Below, one piece after another: positions 1-44,033 of a stretch of 57,279 nt of DNA (positions within the stretch are counted from its first letter, which is position 1; every line of letters begins with the position of its first letter). A program made the translations under genes and the position numbers. Source of the DNA: a virus (taxonomy: Duplodnaviria > Caudoviricetes). The stretch covers positions 1 to 57,279 of the IMG/VR virus record IMGVR_UViG_3300017716_003587; one strand, given 5' to 3'. A model generated the notes under the pieces. The model was not told the origin of the DNA. It was given only the letters and a program-made list of their open reading frames with translations, and ran no database searches.

Positions 1-453
1 CACATCGGTCACGAGCCGCGTGCGGATCATCTCGGTTCCGGGAGTGCCAGTGTCGACGGATTCGACCACAGTCGCCGCGTGCTCGGCCTTGCGGTAGCGG
101 GCCGCGGCCGGGAGTTCGTATCGGGTGACGCCATGGCGTGCGATCTGGTCGGGCGCGACCTGTGGTTGCCGCGTGTACCGGTGAACCGTGTCGATGTGGT
201 GGAGTCCCGGTTCCCGGATCGAACCGTCCGCCGCGGCGTAGGGCTCCGGTGCGAGGTTCCATGCGGCCAGGTCTCCAGCTTCCCGGATGAGGGCCGTAGC
301 GGCCCGCTCAAGGTCCGCGCCGGTCCGGTCGTCCCAGTCGAACCGACGCACCGCAGGGATCACTGGGCGGTCGACGCCATCGGACGCGAGAACGTCCGAC
401 AGAGGACGCCGCGGTCCCTCGGTTCCGATGGTGGGGATGTGTGAGTGATGCAT
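1..453 (-). CDS. Hypothetical protein, truncated at left window edge
   Basis: Not in the ORF track because it has no stop in the window. ATG at 453 preceded by GAAGGGA; frame open for 151 codons (MHHSHIPTIGTEGPRRPLSDVLASDG...MIRTRLVTDV). Confidence 0.65.
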   Translation of the reverse strand, partial: MHHSHIPTIGTEGPRRPLSDVLASDGVDRPVIPAVRRFDWDDRTGADLERAATALIREAGDLAAWNLAPEPYAAADGSIREPGLHHIDTVHRYTRQPQVAPDQIARHGVTRYELPAAARYRKAEHAATVVESVDTGTPGTEMIRTRLVTDV

Positions 454-507
454 TGCTGTCCCTTCATCGTCCGGACCATCCGGACGATTGGGACAAGTGT
501 ACGACAC

Positions 508-592
508 CCCCGGAAGAAATGCACGAACTACGCGCCATAGAGCGGGAGAAATGCCCGGGGTGGTCGGAACGTCCGGCGCCCCGGAAGAAATG
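508..592. repeat. 14-bp direct repeat CCCCGGAAGAAATG (508-521, 579-592) with partial copy at 542-553
   Basis: Read directly from sequence in the divergent intergenic region. Confidence 0.75.
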
Positions 593-717
593 GCGCAACA
601 TGGCGCCATGTGGTGCGGGCGCCGGTTCGGCCGCTCGCCCCGGTTGCGTCCGTTGCGTTGCGCAACGATGTGCCGGCACCGTGTGCATGGCCATTCATGG
701 CAGCGCATGACCATGCT

Positions 718-776
718 CGAACGCCTGTTCGGCGAACCCGTGTTCGACGAACGCCCGTTCGACGAACGTACGTTCG
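718..776. promoter_or_regulatory. Four tandem LexA (SOS/Cheo) boxes CGAAC-N4-GTTCG at 15-bp period
   Basis: 718-731 CGAACgcctGTTCG, 733-746 CGAACccgtGTTCG, 748-761 CGAACgcccGTTCG, 763-776 CGAACgtacGTTCG; matches the Gram-positive/actinobacterial LexA consensus. Confidence 0.8.
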
Positions 777-1066
777 ATCGGGAGGAGGAGGATTTAAAGA
801 ATCCGGGGGGGTCACCCACCCCCCCACCCCCCCTCTGACCAGGAGAAACAGCACCGAGGGCGAGGCCCATTGGGGCTTTGTGATGGTTTCTGGGGGGCTA
901 CCTCTCCCCAGGTGGGGTGGTTGTGGGCCGGTGGGCCGGCTATCTCACATCGTGGGATAGGGGAAGTAGGTCTGTTGGTGTGTGCCGGGTGTAGGGGTGT
1001 GATGGGTTCTTTGGGTCTCCTGATCCAGCGGTCCCATGACAGCCTTGGACCCGATGGGAGGTGCTG

Positions 1067-1324
1067 ATGATGTACGAGGTGGAGTGGAACAACGCCATCC
1101 GCCGTGTGGAACGGTGGGCCGATGAGAGCGATGTGCCGGTGACGGCCGCTTACATGGGTGAGTGCGAGCAGGTGACGGTCGTGACGACCGGCCCTCGGGA
1201 GTCGAGGATCGTGTCGTCGATGGCGGCCACCCATGAACGGTGGTTCGAGGACGACCTCCGGATGCGAGCCACCAACGCCGGTTCGGTCACATCCACCAGT
1301 GGAGGGTTCGGTACCAGGCGATGA
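1067..1324 (+). CDS. Hypothetical protein (first rightward gene)
   Basis: GGGAGG RBS; ATGA overlap with next gene. Confidence 0.6.
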   Translation: MMYEVEWNNAIRRVERWADESDVPVTAAYMGECEQVTVVTTGPRESRIVSSMAATHERWFEDDLRMRATNAGSVTSTSGGFGTRR

Positions 1325-1512
1325 GCCAGGAACTCGGCCTCTACCACCTGTGTGCCGGCGCGACCTCGATGGATCAACTGCGAGGGTACGGCGGCGATCA
1401 GGGGCTCCGACCGGTCTATGCGACCTGGGACGGCGACGGCCGGCTGCTCGAGGTGCAGTTCGCCTCCAGCTACAGCGGCAACCTCGCCGCCAAGTACACC
1501 TACGAAAGGTGA
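1321..1512 (+). CDS. Hypothetical protein
   Basis: MSQELGLYHL...; coupled to upstream stop; GC3-rich codons. Confidence 0.6.
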   Translation: MSQELGLYHLCAGATSMDQLRGYGGDQGLRPVYATWDGDGRLLEVQFASSYSGNLAAKYTYER

Positions 1513-1525
1513 GAACCATCCCCCT

Positions 1526-1660
1526 GTGACCTGTAGAGCAGCACCCCTGGCCAACCGCCCGACGGTCGGGGTGCTGCTCTGTGGGTCACCGGGAACGTGA
1601 GAACCCGGCCAGCCGACCATCGGCTGCGAGGGGGGAATCCGGGCACCCCACCCTCCCCCC
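1526..1660 (+). ncRNA. Candidate structured RNA / leader (multi-hairpin)
   Basis: Long stem 1526-1589 containing G-U pairs, followed by hairpins at 1589-1608, 1610-1626 and ~1628-1660 in a 175-bp intergenic gap. Confidence 0.45.
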
Positions 1661-1688
1661 GACCCCCACTCATCGAGATGGGAGAATC

Positions 1689-2255
1689 ATGACCACCAAC
1701 TTCTACACCGTGAAAGGCGGGCAGGGCGCGACGACACTCGCTGCAGCAGCAGCAGTGCGAACCGCCCGACTGCTCCCCGATCACACGACGACCATCGTGG
1801 TCGCCGACCAGGGTGAGCTCGAGGATCTCGCCGCAGCGTTCGGCGTCTCGATGCCGACCTGGGATGGGATCATCGAGGTCCCAACCGCACAAGGCACCAT
1901 CATGGCCTACACCCGTGAGGCCGCGATGTGTGTCGACCTGATCGAGCCGGACTACACCGTCGGCCACGAGTGGAGGGCGGGCACCAACAACGTGCTCGTC
2001 GTCCGAGCGTGCTACATCGGTCTGCGCCGAGCGGTCAGCCGAGACGACAAGCCGGACCTCGCCGTGTTCATCCCCGAACCCGGCCGAGCGCTCGGCCGTG
2101 ACGACATCGAGCGTTCCCTCGGCTGCAAGGTCATCGAGGCGCCCTGGGATCCGGCAGTGAGCCGTGCGGTTGACGCCGGCATCCTCGCCTACAAGATCCC
2201 GGCGACGCTCGAAGCGACCATCGACGAGATCTCCAAGCACCCTGCGAGGTACTGA
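1689..2255 (+). CDS. Ssd/TadZ(CpaE)/MinD-like protein with deviant P-loop
   Basis: N-terminal VKGGQGATTLA Walker-A-like motif; C-terminal LVVRACYIGLRRA...EPGRALGRDDIE...DPAVSRAVDAG resembles actinobacterial Tad-locus proteins; GGAGA RBS. Confidence 0.65.
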   Translation: MTTNFYTVKGGQGATTLAAAAAVRTARLLPDHTTTIVVADQGELEDLAAAFGVSMPTWDGIIEVPTAQGTIMAYTREAAMCVDLIEPDYTVGHEWRAGTNNVLVVRACYIGLRRAVSRDDKPDLAVFIPEPGRALGRDDIERSLGCKVIEAPWDPAVSRAVDAGILAYKIPATLEATIDEISKHPARY

Positions 2256-2257
2256 CC

Positions 2258-2533
2258 ATGGCCACGAAGTGGCGCATCACCGTGCCCGTCGAGGTCACCA
2301 TCCAGGTGTCCGACGAGTTCGATCACCTGTTCGAGGATCCGGGCGAGCTGGATCAGCACGCCGAGTGGCTCTACGACCAGGCGTGCAACGCGATCCCCTA
2401 CATGCGTCCCACGACGTATGCGGCGATCTACGGCGAGGATCCGGCCGAGCTCATCGGTTCGACCACAGCGATCAACACCGACTTCGACGACTACCACGAT
2501 CGCATCATCATCAAGGAACTGAGGCCACGATGA
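2258..2533 (+). CDS. Acidic hypothetical protein
   Basis: ORF, codon bias, coupling. Confidence 0.7.
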   Translation: MATKWRITVPVEVTIQVSDEFDHLFEDPGELDQHAEWLYDQACNAIPYMRPTTYAAIYGEDPAELIGSTTAINTDFDDYHDRIIIKELRPR

Positions 2534-2646
2534 GCCGCCGAACCGCCTACCGCATGACCCTGATCGGGCTGGTGCTCATGGGCTACATCGGACTCGCACT
2601 CGTGCTCTGGGGCATCCAGTGGATGCTCGCCCCGAACCGGAGGTGA
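2530..2646 (+). CDS. Small membrane protein
   Basis: MSRRTAYRMTLIGLVLMGYIGLALVLWGIQWML, single hydrophobic helix; AAGGA upstream. Confidence 0.6.
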   Translation: MSRRTAYRMTLIGLVLMGYIGLALVLWGIQWMLAPNRR

Positions 2647-2648
2647 CC

Positions 2649-2990
2649 ATGACCATCACGGTCTACGACAACGACGGCAACGACGTCGAGCTCCCGTCCA
2701 TCAAGATCGTCTGCCCGCGGTGTCGCGGCAACGGCCAACACATCAACCCGAGCATCGACGGACACGGCATTAGCGGTGACGACGAATGCTGGGACGACGA
2801 CGAGTTCCGAGAGATGTACTTCGGCGGCGGCTACGACGTCACCTGCTACGAGTGCAAGGGCGCCAACGTCATCGACGACATCGACGAGGACCGCTGCACG
2901 CCCGAACAGATGGAGCTGTGGTGGGATCACCTGCAGTGCCAGTACGAGGATCGGCTGATCGCTGAAGGCGAACGCCGGATGGGAGCCTGA
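2649..2990 (+). CDS. DnaJ-like CxxCxGxG zinc-finger phage protein
   Basis: CPRCRGNG and CYECKGAN motifs; GGAGG RBS. Confidence 0.75.
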   Translation: MTITVYDNDGNDVELPSIKIVCPRCRGNGQHINPSIDGHGISGDDECWDDDEFREMYFGGGYDVTCYECKGANVIDDIDEDRCTPEQMELWWDHLQCQYEDRLIAEGERRMGA

Positions 2991-2991
2991 C

Positions 2992-3210
2992 ATGGCCCAG
3001 ATCATCGAGCCGCTCGACGTGTGGCTCCGCTTCATCTCCGACGACGACGAGGACGCCGAGGCTGACGCCATCACCTTCCGTGACGGCGACCAGTTCCGAG
3101 TCGACTGGTCCCTGACCAGTGTCGGCCTGGTGACCTCCCGATGGTTCCCGACCTACGACGAGGCCGCAGCGTGGCTGACGGCCGAAGGGTTCCGCGACTA
3201 CACGTCCTGA
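2992..3210 (+). CDS. Acidic hypothetical protein
   Basis: ORF, RBS, codon bias. Confidence 0.7.
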   Translation: MAQIIEPLDVWLRFISDDDEDAEADAITFRDGDQFRVDWSLTSVGLVTSRWFPTYDEAAAWLTAEGFRDYTS

Positions 3211-3223
3211 CCGAAAGGACACC

Positions 3224-3595
3224 ATGAGACACTTCGACATCGACGCCATCCTCGCCGGCTACATCGAGTGCGAGCTGTGGACAGCGATCGTCCGTCTCGA
3301 CGACGACGACGACGTCCACGCCGACTCGCTCGACTTCGAACCGTGCCCCGACAGCATGGGCCGTGCCCGCGCTGACATCGAGCAGTTCCTCGACGACGAG
3401 GTGCAGGACATCTGCGAGCGTCGCAACATCGACGACGGGCAGATCGGCCACGACTTCTCCCTCACCCGCAACCATCACGGCGCCGGGTTCTGGGATCGAG
3501 GCCACGGCTACGACGGCCAGCGCCTCACCGACATCGCACACACCTTCGGCGAAACCTCCTGGTTCGTCGAAGGCGACACCCTCCGACTGGAGTGA
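3224..3595 (+). CDS. Conserved phage early protein (GHDFxLTRNxHGAGFWDR type), function unknown
   Basis: Motif recalled from phage hypothetical proteins; GAAAGGA RBS. Confidence 0.75.
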   Translation: MRHFDIDAILAGYIECELWTAIVRLDDDDDVHADSLDFEPCPDSMGRARADIEQFLDDEVQDICERRNIDDGQIGHDFSLTRNHHGAGFWDRGHGYDGQRLTDIAHTFGETSWFVEGDTLRLE

Positions 3596-3597
3596 TC

Positions 3598-3867
3598 ATG
3601 ATCCTCGCCGACTGCAAGCCCGGCACCTACGTGCGCTGCGATCGTTTCCGCGGCGTCGCCTGCATCATCGTCGGCCCTCACTTCGAGTACGTCCTGCACT
3701 CGTGGGACAGCGACGAGGAGGAGGTCGAATCCGGCCAGGTCATCGTCCGCATGTACGGCGACGACCGGCACCACATCGTCGATCCCGACGACTGCACACC
3801 ACTCGACACCGACGACGACCTCGTCTGTGACTGCGGCCAGATCGGCTGCGGATGGGGGCAAGCATGA
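3598..3867 (+). CDS. Hypothetical protein, C-terminal Cys cluster
   Basis: GGAG RBS; CDCGQIGC. Confidence 0.65.
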   Translation: MILADCKPGTYVRCDRFRGVACIIVGPHFEYVLHSWDSDEEEVESGQVIVRMYGDDRHHIVDPDDCTPLDTDDDLVCDCGQIGCGWGQA

Positions 3868-4289
3868 GCTACACCATGGTCAACGAGCAGCCGATGGAGA
3901 CCGGCTGCTACTGCGAAGGGTCTCGCGGCCAGTACGCGATCGATCACCTCGCCGAGCTGGCCGACTCGATCCTGATCGACAGCGACTACGCCAAGATGGT
4001 CGCCGCCGTCCGGTTCGTCGAGTCGTCCTACAGCGGCTGGATCGAGATGGGCGAGATCCTCAACGATCTTGACGAGCAGATCATCAACGCGCTCAACGAC
4101 GTGACGGCCGGCAGGTTCTGCTGGTCATGGGAGGACGGCGAGGTGTTCCTGATGGAACTACCCAACGACGAGGACGACCCGGGCGACGACAACCTCCCGT
4201 GCATCGACTGCGGACGCATCGACATGCCCCTCCATGTCGACTACCGGTGCCCGGACTGTCACCCGCTCAACACCGACGAAGGAGGATGA
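3864..4289 (+). CDS. Acidic hypothetical protein with C-terminal zinc ribbon
   Basis: CIDC...CPDC; ATGA coupling. Confidence 0.7.
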   Translation: MSYTMVNEQPMETGCYCEGSRGQYAIDHLAELADSILIDSDYAKMVAAVRFVESSYSGWIEMGEILNDLDEQIINALNDVTAGRFCWSWEDGEVFLMELPNDEDDPGDDNLPCIDCGRIDMPLHVDYRCPDCHPLNTDEGG

Positions 4290-4969
4290 TGAGACTCTCT
4301 GAGAGCACGATCGACCGCATCTGCCGACGCTTCGGCTGGGCCTGGTGCGGCAAGTACGGCGAGCGGGGCTACGGCTCCTACAGCGGTGAGGGCACGACAC
4401 GAGTCGTGCTCGGCTACTACTGGCTTCACCCCGGCGACGACGGGTGGCACGAGAAGCTGCGAGACCCGAACAGCACTCACCAGCTCGAAGGCATGGGCAA
4501 GCGCTGGCCGATGCTGTTCGCACAGCTCGAGGAGCAAGGCGTTGAGCTCGAATGGGCCGACGAGTGGGAGATCGACCGCGAGCACAGCAAGGCGTACCGC
4601 AAGACCGGTGACAGCTACGGCTGGACCCGATCGTTCGTGTGGGACGACTACGGCAACATGCTCACCCCCGACAGCGACATCGACGAGTGGATGGGTTGGG
4701 CGATCAACAGCTACGACCGATGCCTCGCCGACTCGATGGTCGGCGACGTGAACGCCAAGCTGACCGCCGCCGGCTACGAACGCTGGAACGACGACCCGCT
4801 GGAGAACGGCTGGCACCCGGGACAGGACGACACCCCGCAGGAAGCTGCCCGACGCATCCGCATCGAGCATCCGAACGCCGACGTGATCTTCACCCTCGAC
4901 GAGGCCAGCCAGTTCTACAGCCGGTTCTCGGCCTGGTACCGCAACGACACCGAGGAGGTGGCCGCCTGA
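4286..4969 (+). CDS. Phage hypothetical protein
   Basis: GAAGGAGG RBS; Trp/acidic-rich; ENGWHPGQDD motif. Confidence 0.75.
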   Translation: MMRLSESTIDRICRRFGWAWCGKYGERGYGSYSGEGTTRVVLGYYWLHPGDDGWHEKLRDPNSTHQLEGMGKRWPMLFAQLEEQGVELEWADEWEIDREHSKAYRKTGDSYGWTRSFVWDDYGNMLTPDSDIDEWMGWAINSYDRCLADSMVGDVNAKLTAAGYERWNDDPLENGWHPGQDDTPQEAARRIRIEHPNADVIFTLDEASQFYSRFSAWYRNDTEEVAA

Positions 4970-5259
4970 TGGCCAAGTACCGCGATCAGATGAGGGCGAG
5001 CGAGATCGCCACGACCCTCGTCAACGGCAACATCACCGAGGCCCGCTCCGGGCTCGTCGGACGACGCTCGCCGCAGGGCAACGCCCGGCTCGGCGTGCTC
5101 GTCCTCGAGACCGTCGAGGAACTGGTCGACAGCCACGACCACACCTGGCCCGACGCCATCGAGCGCGTCGCCCGGCTCATCAAGGGCGACGCCGACTACG
5201 TGGCCGACGCCGACTACGAGAACGAGACCGAACGAGACAACGAACCGAGGTACGTGTGA
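4969..5259 (+). CDS. Hypothetical protein
   Basis: MAKYRDQMRASEIA...; GGAGG RBS; TGATG coupling. Confidence 0.7.
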   Translation: MAKYRDQMRASEIATTLVNGNITEARSGLVGRRSPQGNARLGVLVLETVEELVDSHDHTWPDAIERVARLIKGDADYVADADYENETERDNEPRYV

Positions 5260-5558
5260 TGCACGGCTGGATGAGCGACTACGTCTACACGCTCGACGAG
5301 TTGGAGGCGATGGAGGTGCTCGAGGAGGGCTACACGGCCAACCTGGTCGAGGATGCCACCTTCGCTGGCGTGCGGGTGTGGTGGGAACGCACGGGCGTCG
5401 CCGACGGTGAGCCGTGGGAGGAGACGGTGACCGTCGAGGCTCGCACGGTAGACGGCGCATGGCGCGACGCGTTTCGGTACAACGCCGAAGACGTGAGCGA
5501 GTTCATCATCGTCGGCGACGACGAGGACTTCGAGATCGACGCCACGGAAGGACCATGA
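5259..5558 (+). CDS. Highly acidic hypothetical protein
   Basis: About 27 D/E versus 5 R and 0 K in ~100 aa (hand count). Confidence 0.7.
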   Translation: MHGWMSDYVYTLDELEAMEVLEEGYTANLVEDATFAGVRVWWERTGVADGEPWEETVTVEARTVDGAWRDAFRYNAEDVSEFIIVGDDEDFEIDATEGP

Positions 5559-5779
5559 GGGTCGTCCGCACCCGGTCGATCCCGAACGTGCCGACACGGC
5601 GACTGCTGGACGACCTCCGGTTCCTGCACAACACCTACCACACCCCTGACGGGCTCTCGAAGCACGAAGGGGCACGCCGATCACTGGTCGACAACGGCCG
5701 GAAGATCCTGGCGATTCGAGCCGAACTGACCGCGCGCTGCGAGACCTCGGGCATCCCGTGCCAGTGGTGCGGCCCGTAG
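5555..5779 (+). CDS. Small basic hypothetical protein
   Basis: MRVVRTRSIPNV...CQWCGP; GGAAGGA RBS. Confidence 0.6.
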   Translation: MRVVRTRSIPNVPTRRLLDDLRFLHNTYHTPDGLSKHEGARRSLVDNGRKILAIRAELTARCETSGIPCQWCGP

Positions 5780-5782
5780 CAA

Positions 5783-5801
5783 CGTTTGCGACGTGCAAAC
5801 G
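5783..5801. promoter_or_regulatory. Palindromic operator candidate CGTTTGC-N5-GCAAACG
   Basis: Perfect 7-5-7 palindrome in a 40-bp intergenic gap; same arms at 21891-21909. Confidence 0.6.
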
Positions 5802-5819
5802 CCGCAGGAAGGACCAACG

Positions 5820-6095
5820 ATGGAAGGCACGACCGAACGGCTCGTGTGGGCGTCTCAGGAGCCTGGCGAGGCCGGCTACCTGAAGTTCGACTGGGAGGCG
5901 CTCGGCCGCTTGATGGGCACGTCCTGCATCAGCTCCGACGAGGCCTACAGGATCTCGCGGCTCCTCGACGACCTCGGCTACGACTACACGCTCGAGGTGG
6001 TCGAGGTGTACCTGGATGATCAGATTCCCGCCGCCACCATCGCCGCCGAATGGGCGAAGGCATGGGACGAACTCGCACGGGAGGTGCGCAAGTGA
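5820..6095 (+). CDS. Hypothetical protein
   Basis: GGAAGGA RBS; codon bias. Confidence 0.7.
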   Translation: MEGTTERLVWASQEPGEAGYLKFDWEALGRLMGTSCISSDEAYRISRLLDDLGYDYTLEVVEVYLDDQIPAATIAAEWAKAWDELAREVRK

Positions 6096-6946
6096 TGGAC
6101 GTCATCGAGAACAAGTACGAGCCGAACGGCTACCGCATCGAGATCTACCACGATCCCGATGTCTCCAACCCGCGAGACGACAACCCGGAGACGGAGTTCC
6201 CGTTCCTCGGGTTCCCGCACCGCTCCTACAAGATCGGCGACGAGGCGTGGGATCCGCGCCACGACCAGATCGAATGCGGCGACTGCCACGGCTCCGGTGA
6301 GCTCGAGAACGAAGACAGCGGCAACGCCATCATCGACTGCGAGCGCTGCTACGGCCGAGGCTTCCTCACCTACAGCGACGACGGCGTCTCGCTCACCGAC
6401 GTCATCGAGGCGAAGGCGAAGGACATGGGCGCCATCCTGTGGCGCAAGGTCGGCATGATCGACCACTCCTCGGTCCACTACTACCTCGGCGACGGCCCGC
6501 ACGCCTTCGACCCGCAAGGCTGGGACTCGGGAACGTGCGGTGTCATGTTCGTCACCCACGACGTCGTCAATCACCGGTGGGGTCCGCTCCCCGGCAGCTA
6601 TGCGGTCGCCCCTGGCGACCCGGGCTGGGAGACCTCGCCGAACAACGAGGAGTTCCTCATCGAATGCATGCGGGGCGACCTGCAGCTGTACGACGACTGG
6701 GCGAACGGCTACGCCTACGGCTTCACGGTGTACGACCGCAACGGCGACGAGATCGACTCCTGCGGCGGCTACCTCGGCGACTGGGAGACCTCGGGGCTCC
6801 TTGACCAGGCTCGGGCCTGCATCCCTGACGAACCGCCCGCCCTGCTCTACACCGTTCGGCTCACCGAGTTCGAGATCAGCGACATCCTGTCCCGCACCTG
6901 CGCCTCCGACCCCTGGTATCACAAGATGAAGGAGGCGATCCGATGA
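6095..6946 (+). CDS. Conserved phage protein (DHS/WDSG/DSCxG type) with inserted DnaJ-like zinc finger
   Basis: DHSS, WDSGTCG, YDDWANGYAYGF, IDSCGGYLG; CGDCHGSG...CERCYGRG. Confidence 0.75.
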   Translation: MDVIENKYEPNGYRIEIYHDPDVSNPRDDNPETEFPFLGFPHRSYKIGDEAWDPRHDQIECGDCHGSGELENEDSGNAIIDCERCYGRGFLTYSDDGVSLTDVIEAKAKDMGAILWRKVGMIDHSSVHYYLGDGPHAFDPQGWDSGTCGVMFVTHDVVNHRWGPLPGSYAVAPGDPGWETSPNNEEFLIECMRGDLQLYDDWANGYAYGFTVYDRNGDEIDSCGGYLGDWETSGLLDQARACIPDEPPALLYTVRLTEFEISDILSRTCASDPWYHKMKEAIR

Positions 6947-7290
6947 GGACCGACAACCGCTACGCACCCGGCTCGTCCTGGGTGGCCGAGCCCGACGACG
7001 TGCTCGCCGCCTACTCGGGCCGCTGGATCGACCAGGGCGATTTGGCGCCCGCCGGCATCGTCGCCGACCGCCAGGGCTATGCCTGCGACCACCAGCAGTA
7101 CATGTCCATCCTCGGCGGCGAGCTGGGGAAGAAGGCGCCGCACAACTCGGTCGGCGCTCTCGACCGTGACATCACCGTCATCCCGTGGGATGGCGTCGAA
7201 GTGCTGGGCGGTCACGACGGGTTCAAGCTGACCATCGCACTGCGACGCGCCGGCGGCTACGTCTACTGCGACGCCTACCTGCATCGCTGA
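6943..7290 (+). CDS. Hypothetical protein
   Basis: AAGGAGG RBS; coupling. Confidence 0.7.
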   Translation: MRTDNRYAPGSSWVAEPDDVLAAYSGRWIDQGDLAPAGIVADRQGYACDHQQYMSILGGELGKKAPHNSVGALDRDITVIPWDGVEVLGGHDGFKLTIALRRAGGYVYCDAYLHR

Positions 7291-7300
7291 TCGGAGGATC

Positions 7301-7780
7301 ATGTCCAAGCAGCTCACCACCTGGCTCGAGCGCGTCAACGCACCGACCATCTCGCACGCCAACGTCATCCAGCTCTACAGCTGCATCTACCCGCTGTCGC
7401 GTGGAGCACATCCCGGCGGCAAGAAGACGAACCTCGACCGGGAGGAGGCGCAGGAGATCATCCAGGCGGTCTTCCATCGGGCCCGGCTCAACAACGGCAT
7501 CCGCGCCGAGGCCGCCAACGAGCAGCGCGCCCGGGACTGGCTGACGGAGAACCGGCGGCAGTTCGATCTGCCCGACGTCGACTACCGGTCGATCGTCGAG
7601 TTCCGGCTCGTCGGCTTCCACATCTACAGCGAGAACGACGGCTGGATGACGTGCTCGCCGGTGTGGCGTTGCGCCTTCCCCGACGGCTCACAGCTCGACT
7701 ACGCCCCGACCGCCTGGCAGGCGTCGATGGCGAAGCAGAAGCGCCAGTTCTGGTGGCGCTGGGAGTCGAAGCCGCGATGA
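7301..7780 (+). CDS. Hypothetical protein
   Basis: GGAGG RBS; codon bias. Confidence 0.75.
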   Translation: MSKQLTTWLERVNAPTISHANVIQLYSCIYPLSRGAHPGGKKTNLDREEAQEIIQAVFHRARLNNGIRAEAANEQRARDWLTENRRQFDLPDVDYRSIVEFRLVGFHIYSENDGWMTCSPVWRCAFPDGSQLDYAPTAWQASMAKQKRQFWWRWESKPR

Positions 7781-7902
7781 GCCGCCGGCAGACGTTGCGA
7801 GACCTGGCTCGAGTCGTGGAGCTCACCACGATCGCGGCCTGGCCGCTGTTCGTCGGTGTCGGCCTCGTCGGCGTCGGCCTCGCGTTGCTCGTCCTGACCT
7901 GA
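7777..7902 (+). CDS. Small membrane protein
   Basis: MSRRQTLRDLARVVELTTIAAWPLFVGVGLVGVGLALLVLT. Confidence 0.6.
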   Translation: MSRRQTLRDLARVVELTTIAAWPLFVGVGLVGVGLALLVLT

Positions 7903-7914
7903 GAGGGGGCCGTC

Positions 7915-8100
7915 ATGGCTCAGCTGAAGTTCATCGTCACCGTCGACGTCGATGGTGACGCCGAGGAGATGGCGCGCATCTTCGACCAGTACCTCACCCA
8001 CGAGGAGTTCCCGTTCCGTGACGACTACAGCCGGGGCGCGTGGGGCGGCTGGGATGGACCGTTCGTCACCGATGTCACCGTCGAAAGGATCACACCATGA
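7915..8100 (+). CDS. Hypothetical protein
   Basis: GAGAGG RBS. Confidence 0.65.
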   Translation: MAQLKFIVTVDVDGDAEEMARIFDQYLTHEEFPFRDDYSRGAWGGWDGPFVTDVTVERITP

Positions 8101-8474
8101 TCAGTGAGCGCCGCAAGCTGCTGTTCGACCTGTTCACCACCGCCTGCGAGGGCGGCATCAACTACTGGGCCGACGTGGACGCGTACCACCTGTGGCTGCC
8201 GGACTCGGAGTACGACCCGGACTACAACGGGTTCTACGCCGACCTCACCGACCACGTCGACGACGAGCGGCCCAACCCGCTGCACGTCGACCGGCTGGTC
8301 ATGTCGAGCGGCCTGACCCTCGCCTCCCGGGCGTGGCGTCACAAGGTGTCCTGGTCGACGGCACCGCCGCCGGTCGCGATCACCGCCGAAGCCCGGGATC
8401 GCTGGGACTTCGACGCCGGTGACGCCGACGTCATCCTCCAGCTCGGCCTGTTCAAGGACGTGGTGTACGGATGA
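8097..8474 (+). CDS. Conserved phage hypothetical protein (EGGINYW...DADVILQLGLF type)
   Basis: Recalled motif pair; GAAAGGA RBS. Confidence 0.75.
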   Translation: MISERRKLLFDLFTTACEGGINYWADVDAYHLWLPDSEYDPDYNGFYADLTDHVDDERPNPLHVDRLVMSSGLTLASRAWRHKVSWSTAPPPVAITAEARDRWDFDAGDADVILQLGLFKDVVYG

Positions 8475-8749
8475 GCGCATCCGCCGTCGAGCGGCTGGTG
8501 GCCGCCGGCTACCAGCTCACGACCAGCCGGAAGACCACGAAGGCGTGGCCGACGGGATCAGGTCCGGATCATCGGGACTTGCTTCTGCAGGTCAGACGAC
8601 CCGACTGGGACGAGGGTCGGGCGCTCATCTACGAGGCGCAGCTCAACCCGTCCATGCGCCCCGCCGTGTCGGCGATCGAGGCAATGGAGGAGTGCGCCGA
8701 CCGAGCGGTCACCTGGCTGCTCGAGAACTTCACCGGGAGGCAACCGTGA
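8471..8749 (+). CDS. Hypothetical protein
   Basis: Coupled by overlaps at both ends. Confidence 0.65.
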   Translation: MSASAVERLVAAGYQLTTSRKTTKAWPTGSGPDHRDLLLQVRRPDWDEGRALIYEAQLNPSMRPAVSAIEAMEECADRAVTWLLENFTGRQP

Positions 8750-9318
8750 ACATGTGGTGCGACGGCTGCGGCCGTCTCGGCAACGAAGAAGACATGCTGG
8801 TCGTCGGCGACGAGTGCGTCATGGACGACTGCAACGGCACGATCCACGTCGACCTGAAGTGGCTGGACCGCAACGACCTGGAAGGGCTCGACGAGTTCGA
8901 CCTGTTGCGGGTCGCCAACGACATCCGCATCCAGTACGGCGAGGCCATCGGCGGCGCGGCCAGCCCACCGGCGAAGATCACGCGCGTCGCCCAGCTGCAC
9001 GCAGCGAGCCGAGAGGCGGCCGCGAAGATCACAGCGCTCGTCGTCGAGGACCCCTTCCCGCCGAACGGGGTGTGTGTCGAGTGTAACGGCGAGTCGTTCG
9101 CTGTGGTCGAGACCGGCTACGAGCGCAGCACGCAGATCGACCTCGAGTTCGCCGACGACGACGACGATCCCGATGGTGAGCCGTCACAGATATACACGCA
9201 GGCGTTCGGCCTGACGAACGGGTGGTCGGACTTCTCCGACGACGGCGACATCGAAACCTGTGCCTGCACCGAATGCGGGCACATCTACGAACTTCCAGGG
9301 GTGTTCGAATGGAACTGA
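8746..9318 (+). CDS. Acidic Cys-rich hypothetical protein
   Basis: CDGC, CVEC, CTEC motifs; GGGAGG RBS. Confidence 0.7.
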   Translation: MNMWCDGCGRLGNEEDMLVVGDECVMDDCNGTIHVDLKWLDRNDLEGLDEFDLLRVANDIRIQYGEAIGGAASPPAKITRVAQLHAASREAAAKITALVVEDPFPPNGVCVECNGESFAVVETGYERSTQIDLEFADDDDDPDGEPSQIYTQAFGLTNGWSDFSDDGDIETCACTECGHIYELPGVFEWN

Positions 9319-9581
9319 ACGGCGTGACGCTCGACCCGATCCTCGTCAACCGCATCGAGCAGTGGATGGGCGAGATGGTTGAGATCCAGGCGATGTACGA
9401 CGCGATCGAAGGCGACGACACGTTCGAGCCTCAGTCCTACTACCGCGCCGATGAACGGTCGACGTACGCCAACGAAGACGCCGGCCAGATCCTCGCATGG
9501 CTACTGAATCAGCTCGGCCTATGGCCCGGACGACAAGGAGCGCCAGATGATCATGAAGCTGATCCCACCCCCGGAGGGTGA
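9309..9581 (+). CDS. Hypothetical protein
   Basis: MELNGVTLDP...; codon bias. Confidence 0.6.
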   Translation: MELNGVTLDPILVNRIEQWMGEMVEIQAMYDAIEGDDTFEPQSYYRADERSTYANEDAGQILAWLLNQLGLWPGRQGAPDDHEADPTPGG

Positions 9582-9813
9582 GTCCGAAGTCCTGCAGAAG
9601 TGGCTCGACATGTGCCAGGGCTACGTCGTCACGGTCCGGCTGAAGGACCACGGGAAGCGTCACGACGTGGTCCTGTGGGACTTCTGCGAGACCGACGACG
9701 ACGGCTACCTGTGCATCAACGCCGCCGACTTCACCGAAGACGACCCGACGGACGACCGCACCAACCGGCGCAAGATCCGCACCATCGACATCTCAACCCT
9801 GGAGGTCTACTGA
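9553..9813 (+). CDS. Hypothetical protein
   Basis: AAGGAG RBS; start may be 9547. Confidence 0.65.
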   Translation: MKLIPPPEGESEVLQKWLDMCQGYVVTVRLKDHGKRHDVVLWDFCETDDDGYLCINAADFTEDDPTDDRTNRRKIRTIDISTLEVY

Positions 9814-10337
9814 TGCCTCTCATCGACTTCCCGAACTTCCCGTTCGGCCACGACATCTGCAATGACGACCGGGCCGACATGGCGCTGCCGGCCGCGCAGG
9901 CGTTCCACGACGCGTACTACTACCACGCGGGCGGTGAGCCGCTCGCCACGGTGATTCGCGACCTGATCGTCGACCTCCTCCACCTCCACGAACGGCTCGG
10001 CGAGGAGGAGCGGGACCTGGTCCCGACCGACCGGGTGTTGGCCGCCTGCGCCGACGACTACGAGACCGAGCGCAACGAGGAGCTGCCTGGCTGCTCGGAG
10101 TGCGGCCACACCGGCTACCTGCTCGGGCAGACCTACGAGAACATCGAGGTGCCCGACGGCTGGTTGCCGGTGCAGCGCTGCGACACCTGCGACGAGTTCG
10201 ACGGTGACGACAAGGCCGCCGAGTTTGTCGCGATGCGCTACGGCACCGAGTTTCGCTGGGTCGAGGGCAACAGCGAAGGCCGCTGGCCGACGATCCCCGG
10301 CGACTACATCGTCCGACTCCCCGAGGAGACCCCATGA
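9813..10337 (+). CDS. Hypothetical protein with zinc ribbon
   Basis: GGAGG RBS; IRDLIVDLLHL, CSEC...CDTC. Confidence 0.7.
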   Translation: MPLIDFPNFPFGHDICNDDRADMALPAAQAFHDAYYYHAGGEPLATVIRDLIVDLLHLHERLGEEERDLVPTDRVLAACADDYETERNEELPGCSECGHTGYLLGQTYENIEVPDGWLPVQRCDTCDEFDGDDKAAEFVAMRYGTEFRWVEGNSEGRWPTIPGDYIVRLPEETP

Positions 10338-10699
10338 GCAACAACCCACCCGCCCCGCCAGCGATCGTCGCTGCCACTCACCCCGAGCAGGGGGTGATCC
10401 GCTACTTCATGCTCGAAGACGAGGATCAGATCGGATCGGCTCGCGCCGACCTTGAGGCCAACGGCTACCAGTGGGTCCACCTCATCGACATCTACGACGC
10501 CGTCCCTCGCCGGCCGTTCATGACGGTGCGCGACGTGATCGCCACCCTCTCGAAGTGCGACCCCGATCTGCCGGTCCTGATGGACGACGGCGACGGCTGG
10601 TTCACCCATCCGAGCCAACTGATCCTGCCCTCCGAGGAGGAGGGCTACGTCCTGCCCACATTCATCACAGGTCAGGCATACGACTGCCGGGCCTGGTGA
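10334..10699 (+). CDS. Hypothetical protein
   Basis: GAGGAG RBS; MTVRDVIATLSKCDPDLPVLM motif common in phage proteins. Confidence 0.7.
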   Translation: MSNNPPAPPAIVAATHPEQGVIRYFMLEDEDQIGSARADLEANGYQWVHLIDIYDAVPRRPFMTVRDVIATLSKCDPDLPVLMDDGDGWFTHPSQLILPSEEEGYVLPTFITGQAYDCRAW

Positions 10700-10709
10700 A
10701 AGGAACATC

Positions 10710-10961
10710 ATGAAGACCATCGACCTCGGCGACAGCGCCCACACCGTCGACGACCGCGGCGTGCTCAACTACGTCGCCGGTGACTACCGGTACGCGGTCA
10801 GGCTGCCGATCCGCGCCGCCTGCGTCAGCGTCCACCCGCTCAAGGGCGACCGAGCCCAACTCAGCCTCGGCTCGCTCGAGAAGACCACGGTCGTGCTGAC
10901 TGGCCCGACCACCACCATCGACGCACTGTTCACCCAGTGCGGGGGAGCGCCCATTGCCTGA
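10710..10961 (+). CDS. Hypothetical protein
   Basis: GAAAGGA RBS. Confidence 0.7.
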   Translation: MKTIDLGDSAHTVDDRGVLNYVAGDYRYAVRLPIRAACVSVHPLKGDRAQLSLGSLEKTTVVLTGPTTTIDALFTQCGGAPIA

Positions 10962-11208
10962 CCTCGACATCATCAAGCTGCTCGAAGATCGCGCCTTCGG
11001 GATGCGCGCCATCGAGGAGATCGACTTCGGTCTGCTCGACGATCCTGACGACCTCCCCCCGGTCGTCGTGCTCCGTTCCGGGCGCGTCCAGATCGTGCTG
11101 ATCCCGACCGTCGATGACGACCTCATCGACTTCGAGGTGCACGCGTTCGGTGACGGCATGAAGTACGACCACGACGTCCACGCGTACACGGTCCGGTTGC
11201 AGACATAG
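10954..11208 (+). CDS. Acidic hypothetical protein (TTG start)
   Basis: GGGGAG RBS then TTG at 10954. Confidence 0.65.
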   Translation: MPDLDIIKLLEDRAFGMRAIEEIDFGLLDDPDDLPPVVVLRSGRVQIVLIPTVDDDLIDFEVHAFGDGMKYDHDVHAYTVRLQT

Positions 11209-11235
11209 AACAGATGTACTAACATCTGATACACG
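11207..11235. promoter_or_regulatory. Candidate promoter/operator: SOS-like AGAACagatGTACT overlapping palindrome CAGATGT-acta-ACATCTG and TAACAT -10
   Basis: AT-rich intergenic gap before the recombination/regulation block. Confidence 0.5.
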
Positions 11236-11247
11236 AAAGGTGGTGCG

Positions 11248-11754
11248 GTGCGAAAGAAGCAGATCGAACTCGAGCAGGCCGTCATCCGAGCCGCGCGCGC
11301 GTACGTCTCGGGGTCTTGGTCTGCGTCGAGCAGCGCGACCCTGAGCGAAGCAGTTGCGGCAAGCCGGGCCTTGAGCGAGGCAGTCGCCGAACTGGACGCG
11401 CACAAGCCGGCGAGGCGCCTGGACGCCCCCGGCCGCTGGGTCGAAGGCGCCCCCGAAACGTCGGAGCGAGCAGCCCAGCTGGCCCGTCCCGCCCTCGCGA
11501 CGACGCGTCGGCAGATCATCGAGCAGATCGCCGCCTACGGGCAGGGCGAGATGCGAGGGTTCACCGACCAGGAGCTCGAACGGCGGCTGAAGAAGTCGCA
11601 CACCACGGTGTCGTCGGCCCGCAACTTCCTTGTCGAGGGCGGCTGGCTGTGCGACTCCGGATACGTCCGCAAGAACATGTCCGGCCGTGACGCGGTGGTG
11701 TGGGAACTCACCCCGGCCGCACGTGTGGCCGTGACCGAATGGGCCTCGTCATGA
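11248..11754 (+). CDS. Winged-helix DNA-binding protein
   Basis: GFTDQELERRLKKSHTTVSSARNFLVEGGWLCDSG...SGRDAVVW. Confidence 0.7.
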   Translation: MRKKQIELEQAVIRAARAYVSGSWSASSSATLSEAVAASRALSEAVAELDAHKPARRLDAPGRWVEGAPETSERAAQLARPALATTRRQIIEQIAAYGQGEMRGFTDQELERRLKKSHTTVSSARNFLVEGGWLCDSGYVRKNMSGRDAVVWELTPAARVAVTEWASS

Positions 11755-11909
11755 GGGCGGCGCTGTTCTCAACCCGCACCGCCCTCACCGGGTTCACTCT
11801 CGGCCTGTCCGGCGTGACCCAGGGATTCACCTGGCTCCACACCACGCTGCTGTGTATCTGCATCGTCGCAGTGATCGAGCTGGCCATCTACGAAGCGAAG
11901 GAGGGCTGA
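11751..11909 (+). CDS. Small membrane protein
   Basis: Two hydrophobic segments; coupling. Confidence 0.55.
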   Translation: MRAALFSTRTALTGFTLGLSGVTQGFTWLHTTLLCICIVAVIELAIYEAKEG

Positions 11910-12253
11910 TGCCGAAGGGCACATCCGGGAAGCTGCGAGCGACCCGCAAGCCGCCAGCGAAAGCTGAGGCGAAGGAGTACCACATCCAGACCGGCACGAG
12001 GAACCACCTCGCCCCGGTGCTGCACTACGCCACGATCACCTCGGTGAAGGACCGGGCGCTCGCCGCCCTGTACGAGTGGGAGACGTGGTGCCGTCGACAC
12101 AACAACGCCGGCATCCCGGCGATCGCCGCGGCACGCGACGAGGTCAACAAGTTCAACGAGGTGCCGGACGGGCAGCGGCACCGCATCGAGTGCGATTTCG
12201 ATCCAGACGTGACGGGGAGCCACCTCGTCATCATCAAGTGGAAGGGGAAGTGA
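11909..12253 (+). CDS. Hypothetical protein
   Basis: AAGGAGG RBS; TGATG coupling. Confidence 0.7.
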   Translation: MPKGTSGKLRATRKPPAKAEAKEYHIQTGTRNHLAPVLHYATITSVKDRALAALYEWETWCRRHNNAGIPAIAAARDEVNKFNEVPDGQRHRIECDFDPDVTGSHLVIIKWKGK

Positions 12254-13167
12254 TGGCAGTAGCCAAGAAGTCAGAGCCGGTCGCCGAGGCGCCGGTGGAA
12301 CCGGAGGCGGTGGAACCGCCGAAGCCGGCGCCGCGCAACGTGATCGAAGCGATCGCACGTGTGGAGCTGGAGATCGGCGGCATCGCCAAGCTGACGCCGG
12401 AACAGCGACGGCGCCTCACCGGGGTGGCCGGGGAGAGCGGCGGGATCTCGTTCGCCTACCGTGGCATCGACCAGATCGCGGCCGCCGCGCAGCAGCTGTT
12501 CGGCGAGTACGGGGTGGTTCTGGTGCCGAACATCGTCTCGATGGATGTCGAGAAGGTGCTCAAGGGCTTCAACGCCACGGCGGAGAGCACCCAGTGGACC
12601 CGCACCACGCTGACGGTCCGCTACGACATGTACGGGCCCGGTGGCGTCGACGACATGATCTCGTCGACCGTGATCGGTGTCGGTGACGACAACTCCGACA
12701 AGGGCGCGAACAAGGCGGCGACGGCAGCGTTCAAGAACCTGCTGTTGCGCATCCTCTGCATCGGCGACCCGCAGGACGACACCGACCAGTACCAGGACCC
12801 GAACCCGGGCAACGGGCACGCCCCTGCGCCTGCGCCGGCCGACCCGATCAAGGTGCTGTTCGATCGGGTGAAGCAGTACGGGGGCACCCCATTCGCTGAC
12901 GAGATGATGGATGCGGCGAAGGCGTCGAACCTGAAGCTGACCGAGAAGAACCTGAAGGACAACACGGTCCTGCGCACGAAGATCACCGAGATCCTCGACG
13001 CCGCCGACGCGTGGGCCGAGCAGGAACGTGCCCGGGAAGCCGATGAGGCGAACGCGCCGGTGACCGAGGACGCCGCGGTCGAGATGGTCACCGAGATCCT
13101 CGGAGCCGAAGCGGTCCAGGCCGGGCTCGACGAGGTCGCCGACGGTGAAGCGAGGGATGCGGGCTGA
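12253..13167 (+). CDS. erf: ERF-family ssDNA-annealing recombinase
   Basis: FAYRGIDQI...GVVLVP...GVGDDNSDKGANKAATAAFKNLLLRILCI...DDTD. Confidence 0.8.
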   Translation: MAVAKKSEPVAEAPVEPEAVEPPKPAPRNVIEAIARVELEIGGIAKLTPEQRRRLTGVAGESGGISFAYRGIDQIAAAAQQLFGEYGVVLVPNIVSMDVEKVLKGFNATAESTQWTRTTLTVRYDMYGPGGVDDMISSTVIGVGDDNSDKGANKAATAAFKNLLLRILCIGDPQDDTDQYQDPNPGNGHAPAPAPADPIKVLFDRVKQYGGTPFADEMMDAAKASNLKLTEKNLKDNTVLRTKITEILDAADAWAEQERAREADEANAPVTEDAAVEMVTEILGAEAVQAGLDEVADGEARDAG

Positions 13168-13658
13168 TGGCCGACCAGATCACCCAGGGTGACGTCGAAG
13201 CGTTCGTCGACGTCCTCACCCTCATCACCGAACAGTCCGACGAGTACAGCCTCGAAGCGGCGATCACGCTGAAGACCGAACTCGAAGCGGTCATCAAGGC
13301 GGCGAAGGAGACGTGCTCGCTGCTGGAGACGCAGATCCGCAAGCAGCTCGACGGCGCCACCACGGCGGTCGTCGGCACGAAGAAGGCGACGCTGAAGCCG
13401 AACGCTCCGAAGTGGGAGCCGAACCACGGCAAGATCCGCAAGCTGGTCGTGTCCCGGTCGCTCGTCGACGAAGACGGAGAGCGTGTCGCACTCCCGCAGG
13501 AGGCGGCCGAGCAGGCGGTCGAGATCATGTACCAGATGTTCGTCGCCCCGTCCGACATGCCGAAGGCCGGCGCCCTGAAGGCGCTGCGGATCTTCCAGGA
13601 AGACGTCGCCGACAAGAAGGACACGGGCGACAAGCTGGTGATCTCCGATGCTGAGTGA
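13167..13658 (+). CDS. Hypothetical protein in recombination module
   Basis: Coupled ORF with helical N-terminus. Confidence 0.75.
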   Translation: MADQITQGDVEAFVDVLTLITEQSDEYSLEAAITLKTELEAVIKAAKETCSLLETQIRKQLDGATTAVVGTKKATLKPNAPKWEPNHGKIRKLVVSRSLVDEDGERVALPQEAAEQAVEIMYQMFVAPSDMPKAGALKALRIFQEDVADKKDTGDKLVISDAE

Positions 13659-14010
13659 GCTCCCGCTCACCCCGGTCGACTACATCTCGCTGCCGCCGTA
13701 CACGCTGCTCGAGGAGTATCGGGGTGGCGCGCACCACGCGCAGATCATCTACGACATCGAGTCGGCTGCGATCTACGCCTGGAACCGGATGAACAGTTCG
13801 GCCGACTGCCTGATGCTCACCGACGCACGCGGGCAGCTGATTCTCGGTCGGCTCGACCGGCTCTACGTGGTGACCGAGGAGATGTTCATCGTCACCCGTC
13901 ATGTCCTGCCCGACCAGCTGGCCGAGTCGGTCGACGAGTGGGAGATGATGGTCCGTCAGGTGCGGGTGAGTGCCGAGTTCTTGAAGGAGCAGGGCGCATG
14001 GCCACTGTGA
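13648..14010 (+). CDS. Hypothetical protein
   Basis: ORF, codon bias. Confidence 0.65.
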   Translation: MLSELPLTPVDYISLPPYTLLEEYRGGAHHAQIIYDIESAAIYAWNRMNSSADCLMLTDARGQLILGRLDRLYVVTEEMFIVTRHVLPDQLAESVDEWEMMVRQVRVSAEFLKEQGAWPL

Positions 14011-14387
14011 CCTTCGAGGGCTCGTTCCCCGCTGCGCTGTTGAACATGAACGACGGCAACGGCACGCCGTGGGAGCGAAGGCAGCTGAAGGAGCGGCGCG
14101 AGGCCTGGCACCAGCTCGGCTGGGCGATGGGCAACTCGCGCCGGCCGAAGCCCCGACCGGTCGGGGTGGCGGTGGTGACGTTGGAGATCGGGACGAACCG
14201 CCCGAACCAGCGTCGAGACCCGCACAACTTCATGCCGACGATGAAGTACCTGATCGACGGGTTCACGTCGGCCGGCATCTGGCCCGACGACGACTCGAAG
14301 CATGTCCGGACGAACGAGCCGGTGTTCACGACAGCGATCCCACCGAAGACGGTGCGGGTCACGATCCAATGGGAGGAACCCGCATGA
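13998..14387 (+). CDS. rusA: RusA-like Holliday junction resolvase
   Basis: RRDPHNFMPTMKYLIDGFTSAGIWPDDDSKHV fits the RusA D-x-x-N...K...D...DD signature. Confidence 0.75.
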   Translation: MATVTFEGSFPAALLNMNDGNGTPWERRQLKERREAWHQLGWAMGNSRRPKPRPVGVAVVTLEIGTNRPNQRRDPHNFMPTMKYLIDGFTSAGIWPDDDSKHVRTNEPVFTTAIPPKTVRVTIQWEEPA

Positions 14388-14965
14388 CGGACGCGGAGAG
14401 CCGATGGTGGGATTCGCTCGGCGAGTACATGTTCGACAACGCCTACGGCGTCCCGCACTACGACGTCGAAGCGGTCGGCCTGTTCGTCGTCGAGCAACTG
14501 TCGATCGGGCTGCGGCACAGGGTGCTCGACATCGGCTGCGGCCCTGGCCGTCTCGCTCGCGACGTCATCACCCGGTCCGGCTGTGCGCTGGTCGGCATCG
14601 ATGTGGCGCCGAGCATGGTCACGGTCGCCCAGGATGGCGGGCTCGGGACGTACCTGGTGTCGGACGGCTTCAGCATCCCGGTCATGGGCCCGTTCGATGC
14701 GATCTACGCAGTCACCGTCTTCCAGCACATCCGCCACACCATCGTGCGCGGCTACATGCGCCAGGCGCTCGACCGGCTGGCGCCGGGCGGGCGGATGCTG
14801 TTCAGCTACGCCGACGGCGACGAGGAGGGGTTCCTCTCCCATCAGGCGACGACGGCGAGCATGATGGCGTGGATGTACGAGGCCGGCTTCGGCAACGTGC
14901 GCCAGGTCCCCACCCCGCCCACTCATCCCGCCTGGGGTTGGATGATCGCCGAGGCCCCCCGATGA
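14384..14965 (+). CDS. Class I SAM-dependent methyltransferase
   Basis: VLDIGCGPG, GIDVAPSM, FDAIYAVTVFQH, LAPGGRMLF. Confidence 0.85.
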   Translation: MTDAESRWWDSLGEYMFDNAYGVPHYDVEAVGLFVVEQLSIGLRHRVLDIGCGPGRLARDVITRSGCALVGIDVAPSMVTVAQDGGLGTYLVSDGFSIPVMGPFDAIYAVTVFQHIRHTIVRGYMRQALDRLAPGGRMLFSYADGDEEGFLSHQATTASMMAWMYEAGFGNVRQVPTPPTHPAWGWMIAEAPR

Positions 14966-38330: not shown

Positions 38331-38334
38331 GACG

Positions 38335-43984: not shown

Positions 43985-44033
43985 GGCAGCATCGTACACG
44001 ACCGTCTGATACACGCAAGCTATGATCGCGGCC
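43985..44033. promoter_or_regulatory. Back-to-back leaderless-type promoters (TACGAT on minus, TATGAT on plus)
   Basis: -10 hexamers 6 and 7 nt from starts at 43984 and 44034; TCTGATACACG motif between them. Confidence 0.6.

Follow-up and report, generated by a model that had tools for sequence, protein, structure and literature searches.

The main control region of an uncultured tailed phage carries a compact array of LexA-type palindromes, which raises the question of which protein reads these sites and what is controlled through them. The window, i.e. the whole stretch of DNA that was analysed (57,279 bases), is a linear IMG/VR virus record estimated to be 75% complete, with a GC content of 66-67%. 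A motif scan of the whole window returned exactly four CGAAC-N4-GTTCG palindromes, all of them perfect matches and all located within positions 718-776: box 1 at 718-731 (spacer GCCT), box 2 at 733-746 (CCGT), box 3 at 748-761 (GCCC) and box 4 at 763-776 (GTAC). The box starts (718, 733, 748 and 763) follow a 15-bp period, the arms are identical and the four spacers all differ, while the linker base common to neighbouring boxes gives each box one consensus T/A flank. In 100 dinucleotide-preserving shuffles the motif was matched 0.10 times on average and at most once, none of the shuffles reaching four matches, so that scan and shuffles together confirm the first-pass annotation in its description of four perfect palindromes at a 15-bp period with invariant arms and differing spacers. 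Near-matches with up to two mismatches are also more frequent in the whole window than in shuffled sequence (81 versus 51.4 ± 7.05), although this excess may be an effect of codon usage rather than a sign of extra sites. In the classical Gram-positive LexA box a purine and a pyrimidine at the outer spacer positions extend the palindrome, a feature that is present in three of the four window boxes and half present in the remaining one. The motif CGAAC-N4-GTTCG is the Bacillus subtilis LexA consensus as quoted in PMC4551915, and it also fits the Streptomyces venezuelae ChIP-seq consensus tCGAAC-N4-GNNCGa as given in PMC9380542.

The array is situated in a divergent intergenic control region of 607 bp (454-1060), which separates a leftward from a rightward operon. 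The first gene of the leftward operon (1-453, minus strand, start at 453) is cut by the contig end and has no PHROG, Pfam or NCBIfam match; according to the layout of two relatives, G048 and G051, this operon continues to the portal gene. The rightward early operon (1061-18160) is opened by a plus-strand gene at 1061-1324, to which no function is assigned by PHROG or Pfam. The distance of about 270-290 bp to the nearest start on either side that had been proposed for the array agrees with the measured values, which are 265 bp to the minus-strand start at 453 and about 285-294 bp to the plus-strand start, depending on whether the GTG at 1061 or the ATG at 1070 is used. None of the ORFs across the array passes the third-position GC test that recovers the neighbouring genes, and the array region is accordingly regarded as intergenic. 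A promoter scan of positions 300-1300 found no sigma-70-like promoter, and an Rfam scan of positions 1-3000 gave only sub-threshold noise. Among the sequencing runs listed for this DNA there was no RNA run, the entries being DNA-type freshwater runs and one run with a 5% share.

Comparison with related phages indicates how this region has been conserved. A clade of six records was defined by a TerL profile search of viral contigs together with whole-record comparison, and TerL identity to the window across this clade is 48-70%. Its other members are G048 (27 kb, 40% complete, TerL 48% identical to that of the window), with four perfect boxes at a 15-bp period (15599-15657); G051 (67 kb, 100% complete, TerL 70%), with seven perfect boxes and one with a single mismatch (10656-10908); G053 (72 kb, 95% complete, TerL 51%), with two perfect boxes and five to six one-mismatch boxes (38371-38534); and G052 (40 kb, 69% complete, TerL 67%) and G054 (61 kb, 84% complete, TerL 49%), which have no box and whose contigs, judged from synteny, end before the control gap. 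Arrays of four to eight boxes with varying spacing are thus present in all four members that hold the divergent gap, including the distant G048 and G053 (TerL 48-51%), and each lies between diverging operons in the same layout. The spacers in G048 are AGGT, ACGC, TGGT and TGGT, and the start-to-start spacings in G051 are 26, 26, 35, 26, 34, 52 and 40 bp.

A closer comparison is provided by two metagenome contigs, L347 and L351, which encode a homologue of the leftward gene with 86% identity and carry three boxes. Box 1 is base-for-base the same in these contigs, boxes 2 and 3 keep their arms while their spacers are altered at three and at one of the four positions, respectively, and box 4 is without a counterpart, its absence corresponding to an 11-base length difference. 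Over the three common boxes, 0 of 30 arm positions differ as compared with 5 of 14 spacer or linker positions (Fisher p 0.0018), within flanking DNA that is 76-83% identical. The search for related phage contigs with conserved arms and variable N4, which the first-pass annotation had suggested, thus found them in all four informative clade members, and its view of the boxes as LexA-type operators is borne out, with selection seen in arms that stay fixed while spacers drift among relatives. Judged by motif and conservation, the four boxes form a genuine array of LexA-type operators that is under selection.

Several further elements accompany the boxes in the control region. Between the array and the early operon, at 805-833, lies an element made up of G7, C7 and C7 runs that recurs beside arrays in relatives and in other phage-like contigs; in full it reads GAATCC-G7-N7-C7-A-C4 (C7 in the window), occupies positions 800-833 and is conserved in L347 and L351. 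Runs of G6-10 followed by at least one C run, at most 150 bp from the array on its early-operon side, are observed in the window, G048 (15525-15593), G051 (10603-10629) and G053 (38222-38357), and the same arrangement is seen near the arrays of L340, L341, L342, L343, L353 and L347. The share of a record's G/C runs that sit near the array amounts to 4 of 18 in the window, 5 of 5 in L353 and 2 of 2 in L343, and GAATCCGGGGGGGT is common to the window, L347 and G051. The element is terminator-like on the minus strand, and the fold energy of the G7/C7 hairpin is no better than that of shuffled sequence (z -0.9 and -0.25); it might terminate leftward transcription, form a 5' hairpin, a G-quadruplex or an i-motif, or mark a genome end. 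A 12-bp perfect palindrome, CATGGCGCCATG (599-610), is likewise conserved in L347 and L351 and could be considered a candidate site for a second regulator, and the stretch GGAGGAGGAG is also conserved in these contigs. The motif CGG(A/G)AGAAATG occurs three times between the array and the leftward gene (508-538, 543-557 and 579-609), with a copy also after the array in G051. A search of the window for another recurring palindrome that might serve the phage LexA-domain protein described below gave nothing convincing.

The same type of box arrangement is encountered in many other viral contigs. Two boxes at a 15-bp period were found in 67 viral-contig stretches, versus one for the reversed pattern; the spacers of the two boxes differ in 45 of these 67 tandem pairs, and the outer spacer positions are occupied by the purine in 131 of 134 cases and by the pyrimidine in 133 of 134. 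When the arrays of the clade and of phage-like contigs are taken together (55 boxes), 46 boxes have the purine...pyrimidine combination at the outer spacer positions and none has neither. Two boxes within 30 nt occur in at least 120 viral stretches, and in 80 of these loci spacings of 15 or 16 bp are the most frequent (18 pairs), while a cluster of at least five boxes is rare (3 of the 80). A search for a gene with a LexA DNA-binding domain (PF01726) took in 50 of the 67 tandem-box viral loci, and 48 of these 50 records, including all nine that are at least 90% complete, do not encode it, which implies that the host protein is the simplest candidate for the reader shared by such boxes.

Three or more boxes at a 15-bp period were found in 20 metagenome contigs, with a maximum of seven in a row (L342). 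At least eight of them are phage-like, namely L340, L347 and L351, in which homologues of the window are present, L350, which encodes a peptide that is also present in the viral contig L071, and L341, L342, L343 and L353, which carry the G/C-run element. At least six others are coding repeats with identical 15-bp units in long ORFs (L335, L337, L346, L348, L349 and L352); repeats of this kind encode pentapeptide repeats, for example in a DUF3071 protein and in an AP-endonuclease-type protein, and they are false positives for motif scans. In a further contig, L336 (GC 0.71), a full-length LexA gene (PF01726 plus PF00717) with an actinobacterial-style N-terminal extension is preceded by five boxes (3204-3342), of which four, three perfect and one imperfect, keep the 15-bp period and the remaining one is likewise imperfect. 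The gap that holds these boxes appears to be divergent, and the locus has the look of an unusually box-rich host lexA operator. The presence of such an array at a full-length lexA gene indicates that this operator architecture belongs to a cellular LexA regulon. Motif, 15-bp period and divergent gap are the same in L336 and in the window; on the other hand, the boxes of L336 regulate a cellular gene and have identical spacers, which suggests recent duplication, whereas the array of the window belongs to a phage and has diverged spacers. Textbook cases with multiple boxes are the lexA-yneA region of B. subtilis and the overlapping double boxes of colicin promoters. The statement in the first-pass annotation that ordinary promoters carry one or two boxes therefore needs softening, given these 20 contigs and the one among them in which the boxes precede a bacterial lexA gene.

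The phage also encodes a LexA-related protein of its own. The first-pass annotation had singled out the product of a plus-strand gene at 15636-15917 for binding experiments, and this product proved to be a truncated LexA homologue of 93 amino acids (P0001), with a winged-helix DNA-binding domain and a short C-terminal helix and with no S24 peptidase domain. [quoted passage not shown] Since the ORF ends at 93 residues, TIGR00498 stays below its cut-off and PF00717 (S24 peptidase) is absent from the window and four relatives, it is best described as a LexA-domain protein and not as a LexA repressor. Its best solved relatives by sequence are LexA repressors, and its AlphaFold model (mean pLDDT 77) comprises three helices, a two-strand wing and an extra C-terminal helix (80-91), for which the top Foldseek matches are LexA structures 3k2z and 3jsp (E about 2.5e-3 to 3e-3), none reaching 1e-3 and generic winged-helix regulators following close behind. 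Among cultured phages, this protein gave only weak Listeria and Staphylococcus matches. The gene is placed immediately before SSB, and its start overlaps with the stop of the preceding DNA methyltransferase gene; a short LexA-domain ORF is present in all six clade members, adjoining a methyltransferase homologue in five of them.

With regard to the remainder of the genome, the rightward early operon encodes ERF (12250-13167), RusA (13998-14387), two methyltransferases and SSB (15910-16398), as assigned by PHROG and Pfam. A long leftward operon, which starts from the portal gene at the right contig end, includes capsid, tail, tape measure (28876-34518), lysin and small and large terminase genes (18099-19742), and its terminase end converges on the early operon. 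Within the structural block, between head and neck genes (39288-44131, minus strand), two glycosyltransferase-like genes and one methyltransferase gene are found. The third early gene (1686-2255, plus strand) encodes a protein of 189 amino acids whose P-loop, KGGQGATT, is of the ParA/ArsA/MinD-like type but has another residue in place of the Walker lysine, and its similarity to ArsA (E 0.04) and BcsQ (E 0.003) is weak; it could be a degenerate partition-type ATPase, and a partition system based on this ORF was considered and found to be unsupported in view of the weak P-loop similarity and the replaced lysine. Megablast of positions 1-3000 against cultured phages returned no match, and all TerL matches among cultured phages are below 60% identity, the best among the matches listed being at about 32%. 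High GC content and motif type give the clade phages an actinobacterial look. A segment of the genome that is present in relatives and absent from the window encodes methylases, HTH proteins and a nuclease, as well as a DnaB-type helicase in G051. The earlier remark that the phage has no visible polymerase is, accordingly, misleading, as it is in part due to a record that is only 75% complete, and the complete G051 has its DnaB-type helicase in the segment outside the window. The other absence that had been pointed out, that of an integrase or CI-type repressor, has held up for the known families, though a repressor of a novel type could escape such searches: profiles for tyrosine integrase (PF00589), resolvase-type recombinase (PF00239) and S24 peptidase (PF00717) each match none of five clade records, including those that are 100% and 95% complete. 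These phages may be either lytic or kept extrachromosomally.

Taken together, these data make it probable that host LexA, through the array as a bank of operators, gates the two diverging phage operons and that the truncated LexA is a further regulator; as principal reader of the boxes, host LexA is more likely than the phage protein. As the boxes are perfect, they are presumably high-affinity operators. In an undamaged host, LexA dimers would occupy the boxes and hold down one or both of the outward promoters; with 15 bp per box, neighbouring sites would be about one and a half helical turns apart and so lie on roughly opposite faces of the DNA. Upon DNA damage, self-cleavage of LexA stimulated by RecA would lift the repression and allow transcription of the early operon, which supplies ERF, RusA, SSB, methyltransferases and the truncated LexA. 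The latter, which has neither a cleavage nor a dimerisation domain, should not be open to inactivation by RecA and could take over regulation in a second stage, by occupying either the vacated boxes or, like gp6 of phage GIL01, a separate site. From these sequence features we infer that LexA binds to the boxes and represses, that the system responds to the SOS signal and that the truncated LexA has a part in it, and it is assumed that the array overlaps with promoters, the boxes being 265-290 bp from both start codons. The authors of PMC4551915 questioned whether two LexA dimers can be present at once on the two possibly overlapping sites at the GIL01 promoter P1, so that full occupancy of boxes at a 15-bp period is not assured. 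What counts against gating by host LexA is that no prophage of this clade was detected in the genomes of 185,579 species (one genome each), where the best TerL identity was 38%.

The arrangement in the clade finds its closest parallel in GIL01, a tectivirus of Bacillus thuringiensis, in which host LexA, bound at tandem boxes, operates jointly with gp6, a truncated LexA homologue that acts at its own site at the late promoter P3 (both as described in PMC6182141). Both phages have tandem host-type LexA boxes at control promoters, which in the present case are putative, and both encode a LexA DNA-binding domain without a protease, gp6 and P0001 alike matching PF01726. The truncated-LexA gene lies late in the early gene set of both; GIL01 has no integrase or cleavable CI-type repressor, and none was recognised in five clade records. 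The two viruses are nevertheless unrelated: GIL01 is a 15-kb tectivirus while the clade consists of tailed phages of about 60-70 kb with 57-67% GC. GIL01 has paired imperfect boxes at two co-directional promoters (a single mismatch in each of the boxes at 4886 and 4919, which lie 33 bp from each other, and two in dinBox1 at 185), whereas the clade has four to eight mostly perfect boxes in one divergent gap. Moreover, plasmid-like lysogeny has been shown for GIL01, whereas the clade phages may be lytic or kept extrachromosomally. P0001 and gp6 gave no pairwise BLASTP alignment, and a search for homologues of the GIL01 proteins gp7, its LexA co-repressor, and gp1 in the six clade records produced tblastn noise only (E >=0.3; gp7 E >=2.2), although an analogue of gp7 that lacks sequence similarity may exist. 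The lack of pairwise similarity between P0001 and gp6 points to probably independent acquisitions, and the clade arrangement would parallel that of GIL01 while probably being of independent origin. For Streptomyces tectiviruses, PMC6950372, a study of actinobacterial tectiviruses, reports no LexA sites. Among the papers listed in the literature searches, none describes arrays of LexA boxes, or genes for a truncated LexA, in tailed phages of actinobacteria, and supplements may hold more on gp6 homologues.

Use of host LexA as a damage sensor is also known from the tum gene of coliphage 186 and from CTX phage, where one or two CTG-N10-CAG boxes are found beside a dedicated phage repressor. The use of host LexA as a phage damage sensor, which is proposed here, would be shared with these systems, from which the window differs in having at least four boxes, no recognisable dedicated repressor and an added phage LexA homologue.

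It is conceivable, albeit rather unlikely, that the array is read instead mainly or exclusively by the truncated LexA of the phage, which would serve for autoregulation or timing of the divergent operons, either as a repressor or as a class II-type activator; it might then also sit on host SOS boxes as a RecA-proof surrogate of LexA. Gene and array occur together in all four informative clade members, and the only two tandem-box viral records among the 50 searched that do encode PF01726 are the clade member G048 and G046, in which the gene is again directly upstream of SSB. G046 (L073, 1408-2173) has a GC content of 0.49 and no detected kinship to the window, and its four boxes, two in tandem and two single, lie about 10-12 kb from its LexA-domain gene. 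The recognition helix of the window protein reads S-K-S-S-T as compared with S-[PT]-S-[ST]-V in four full-length LexAs, and by keeping S-x-S-S like true LexAs this protein may be able to read the boxes itself. However, across the four array-bearing members the recognition helix varies (S-K-S-S-T-Q-P, S-P-N-T-G-H-A, S-P-A-S-T-N-A and S-P-G-S-I-Q-A) while the box arms are identical, and 11 further viral records with a LexA-domain homologue, two of them 97% complete, have no array and a single box among them. The 93-aa protein moreover lacks the LexA dimerisation domain, and gp6 of GIL01, the sole case that has been studied, binds a different palindrome according to PMC6182141.

The wider family bears on the same issue, as 27,591 proteins match the profile of the stand-alone LexA domain at E <=0.001 and many relatives are tandem domain duplications, which suggests that the domain works in pairs on palindromes. 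Among the best 153 family members, 54 fall in a band of 111-190 amino acids, many of them with two matched stretches, and P0007, P0009 and P0028 have two tandem LexA DNA-binding domains and no protease domain, i.e. they are single-chain 'dimers'. In the most far-reaching form of this proposal, a RecA-proof LexA domain would read the boxes of host LexA, and a non-integrating phage of high-GC Gram-positive bacteria would swap in an uncleavable repressor that times both operons and clamps host SOS functions and rival LexA-controlled prophages shut, the 15-bp packing allowing domain-only units to bind side by side; as a joint claim this is tentative and, in our view, doubtful. Gating by host LexA, with the truncated protein in second place, is retained as the preferred reading.

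It had further been suggested that the array is a LexA sponge, in which replicated phage DNA, with four to eight strong boxes per copy, would titrate host LexA and so de-repress SOS and recombination genes without damage. The boxes are indeed perfect palindromes and multiplied, the phage relies on recombination functions of the ERF, SSB and RusA type, and the finding of no integrase or repressor fits a lytic life style. However, a sink could sit anywhere, yet all four arrays are in the divergent gap beside the same G/C-run element and the rest of the window is free of boxes; in addition, a phage LexA DNA-binding domain would oppose de-repression if it bound the same sites, and none of the papers listed in the literature search describes such a LexA sponge. 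The claim is thus not supported by the present analysis and is judged improbable.

A comparably small chance is given to the idea that a phage initiator binds the repeats as iterons of a replication origin, or that they overlap with such an origin. As in the origins of lambda (ori) and P1 (oriR), there are four regular dyad repeats near an A+T-richer patch, the only one of the region (791-801), which adjoins the array; the PHROG search linked the truncated LexA weakly (E 3.9e-4) with a replication initiator, phrog_270, and G048 has five DnaA-box-like motifs with a TCCACA core within 60 bp of its array, out of 20 in its 27 kb. These motifs of G048 are located at 15664-15737 (L075, 1664-1737) and are followed by a long repeat rich in GTCGAC/GACGTC. 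Unlike the iterons of those origins, however, the repeat is the exact LexA consensus, which is encountered again in unrelated phages as well as at a bacterial lexA gene, no initiator family or gene adjoins the array according to PHROG and Pfam, no DnaA-box-like motif occurs within 400 bp of the array in the window, G051 and G053, and box spacing is irregular in G051 and G053.

That the array is a mere chance or coding 15-bp tandem repeat without operator function (for instance an FDERP-type peptide in the ORF 488-838) can practically be dismissed, for although such coding repeats exist, as in at least six of the 20 metagenome contigs described above, the window spacers all differ next to identical arms, relatives keep the arms and change the spacers, the ORFs across the array fail the third-position GC test, the ORF 488-838 has no Pfam match, and the G051 spacings of 26, 35 and 34 bp, not being multiples of three, break any reading frame, which rules out the conserved peptide that the first-pass annotation had named as the finding that would speak against operators.

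In conclusion, what is surprising is not so much the array as its occurrence together with a truncated LexA gene throughout a clade of tailed, uncultured phages without a detected integrase. LexA as the sole gatekeeper between lysis and lysogeny, combined with a phage-encoded LexA fragment, has so far been worked out only for GIL01, and the clade of tailed phages analysed here would have arrived at the same two-part logic on its own. The arrays also represent a natural test bed for the question of how many LexA dimers fit on operators that are 15 bp apart. Capture of host LexA would then be a recurrent phage strategy and not a curiosity, and the survey points the same way, with its at least 120 viral contigs with clustered boxes and its 27,591 stand-alone LexA-domain matches.
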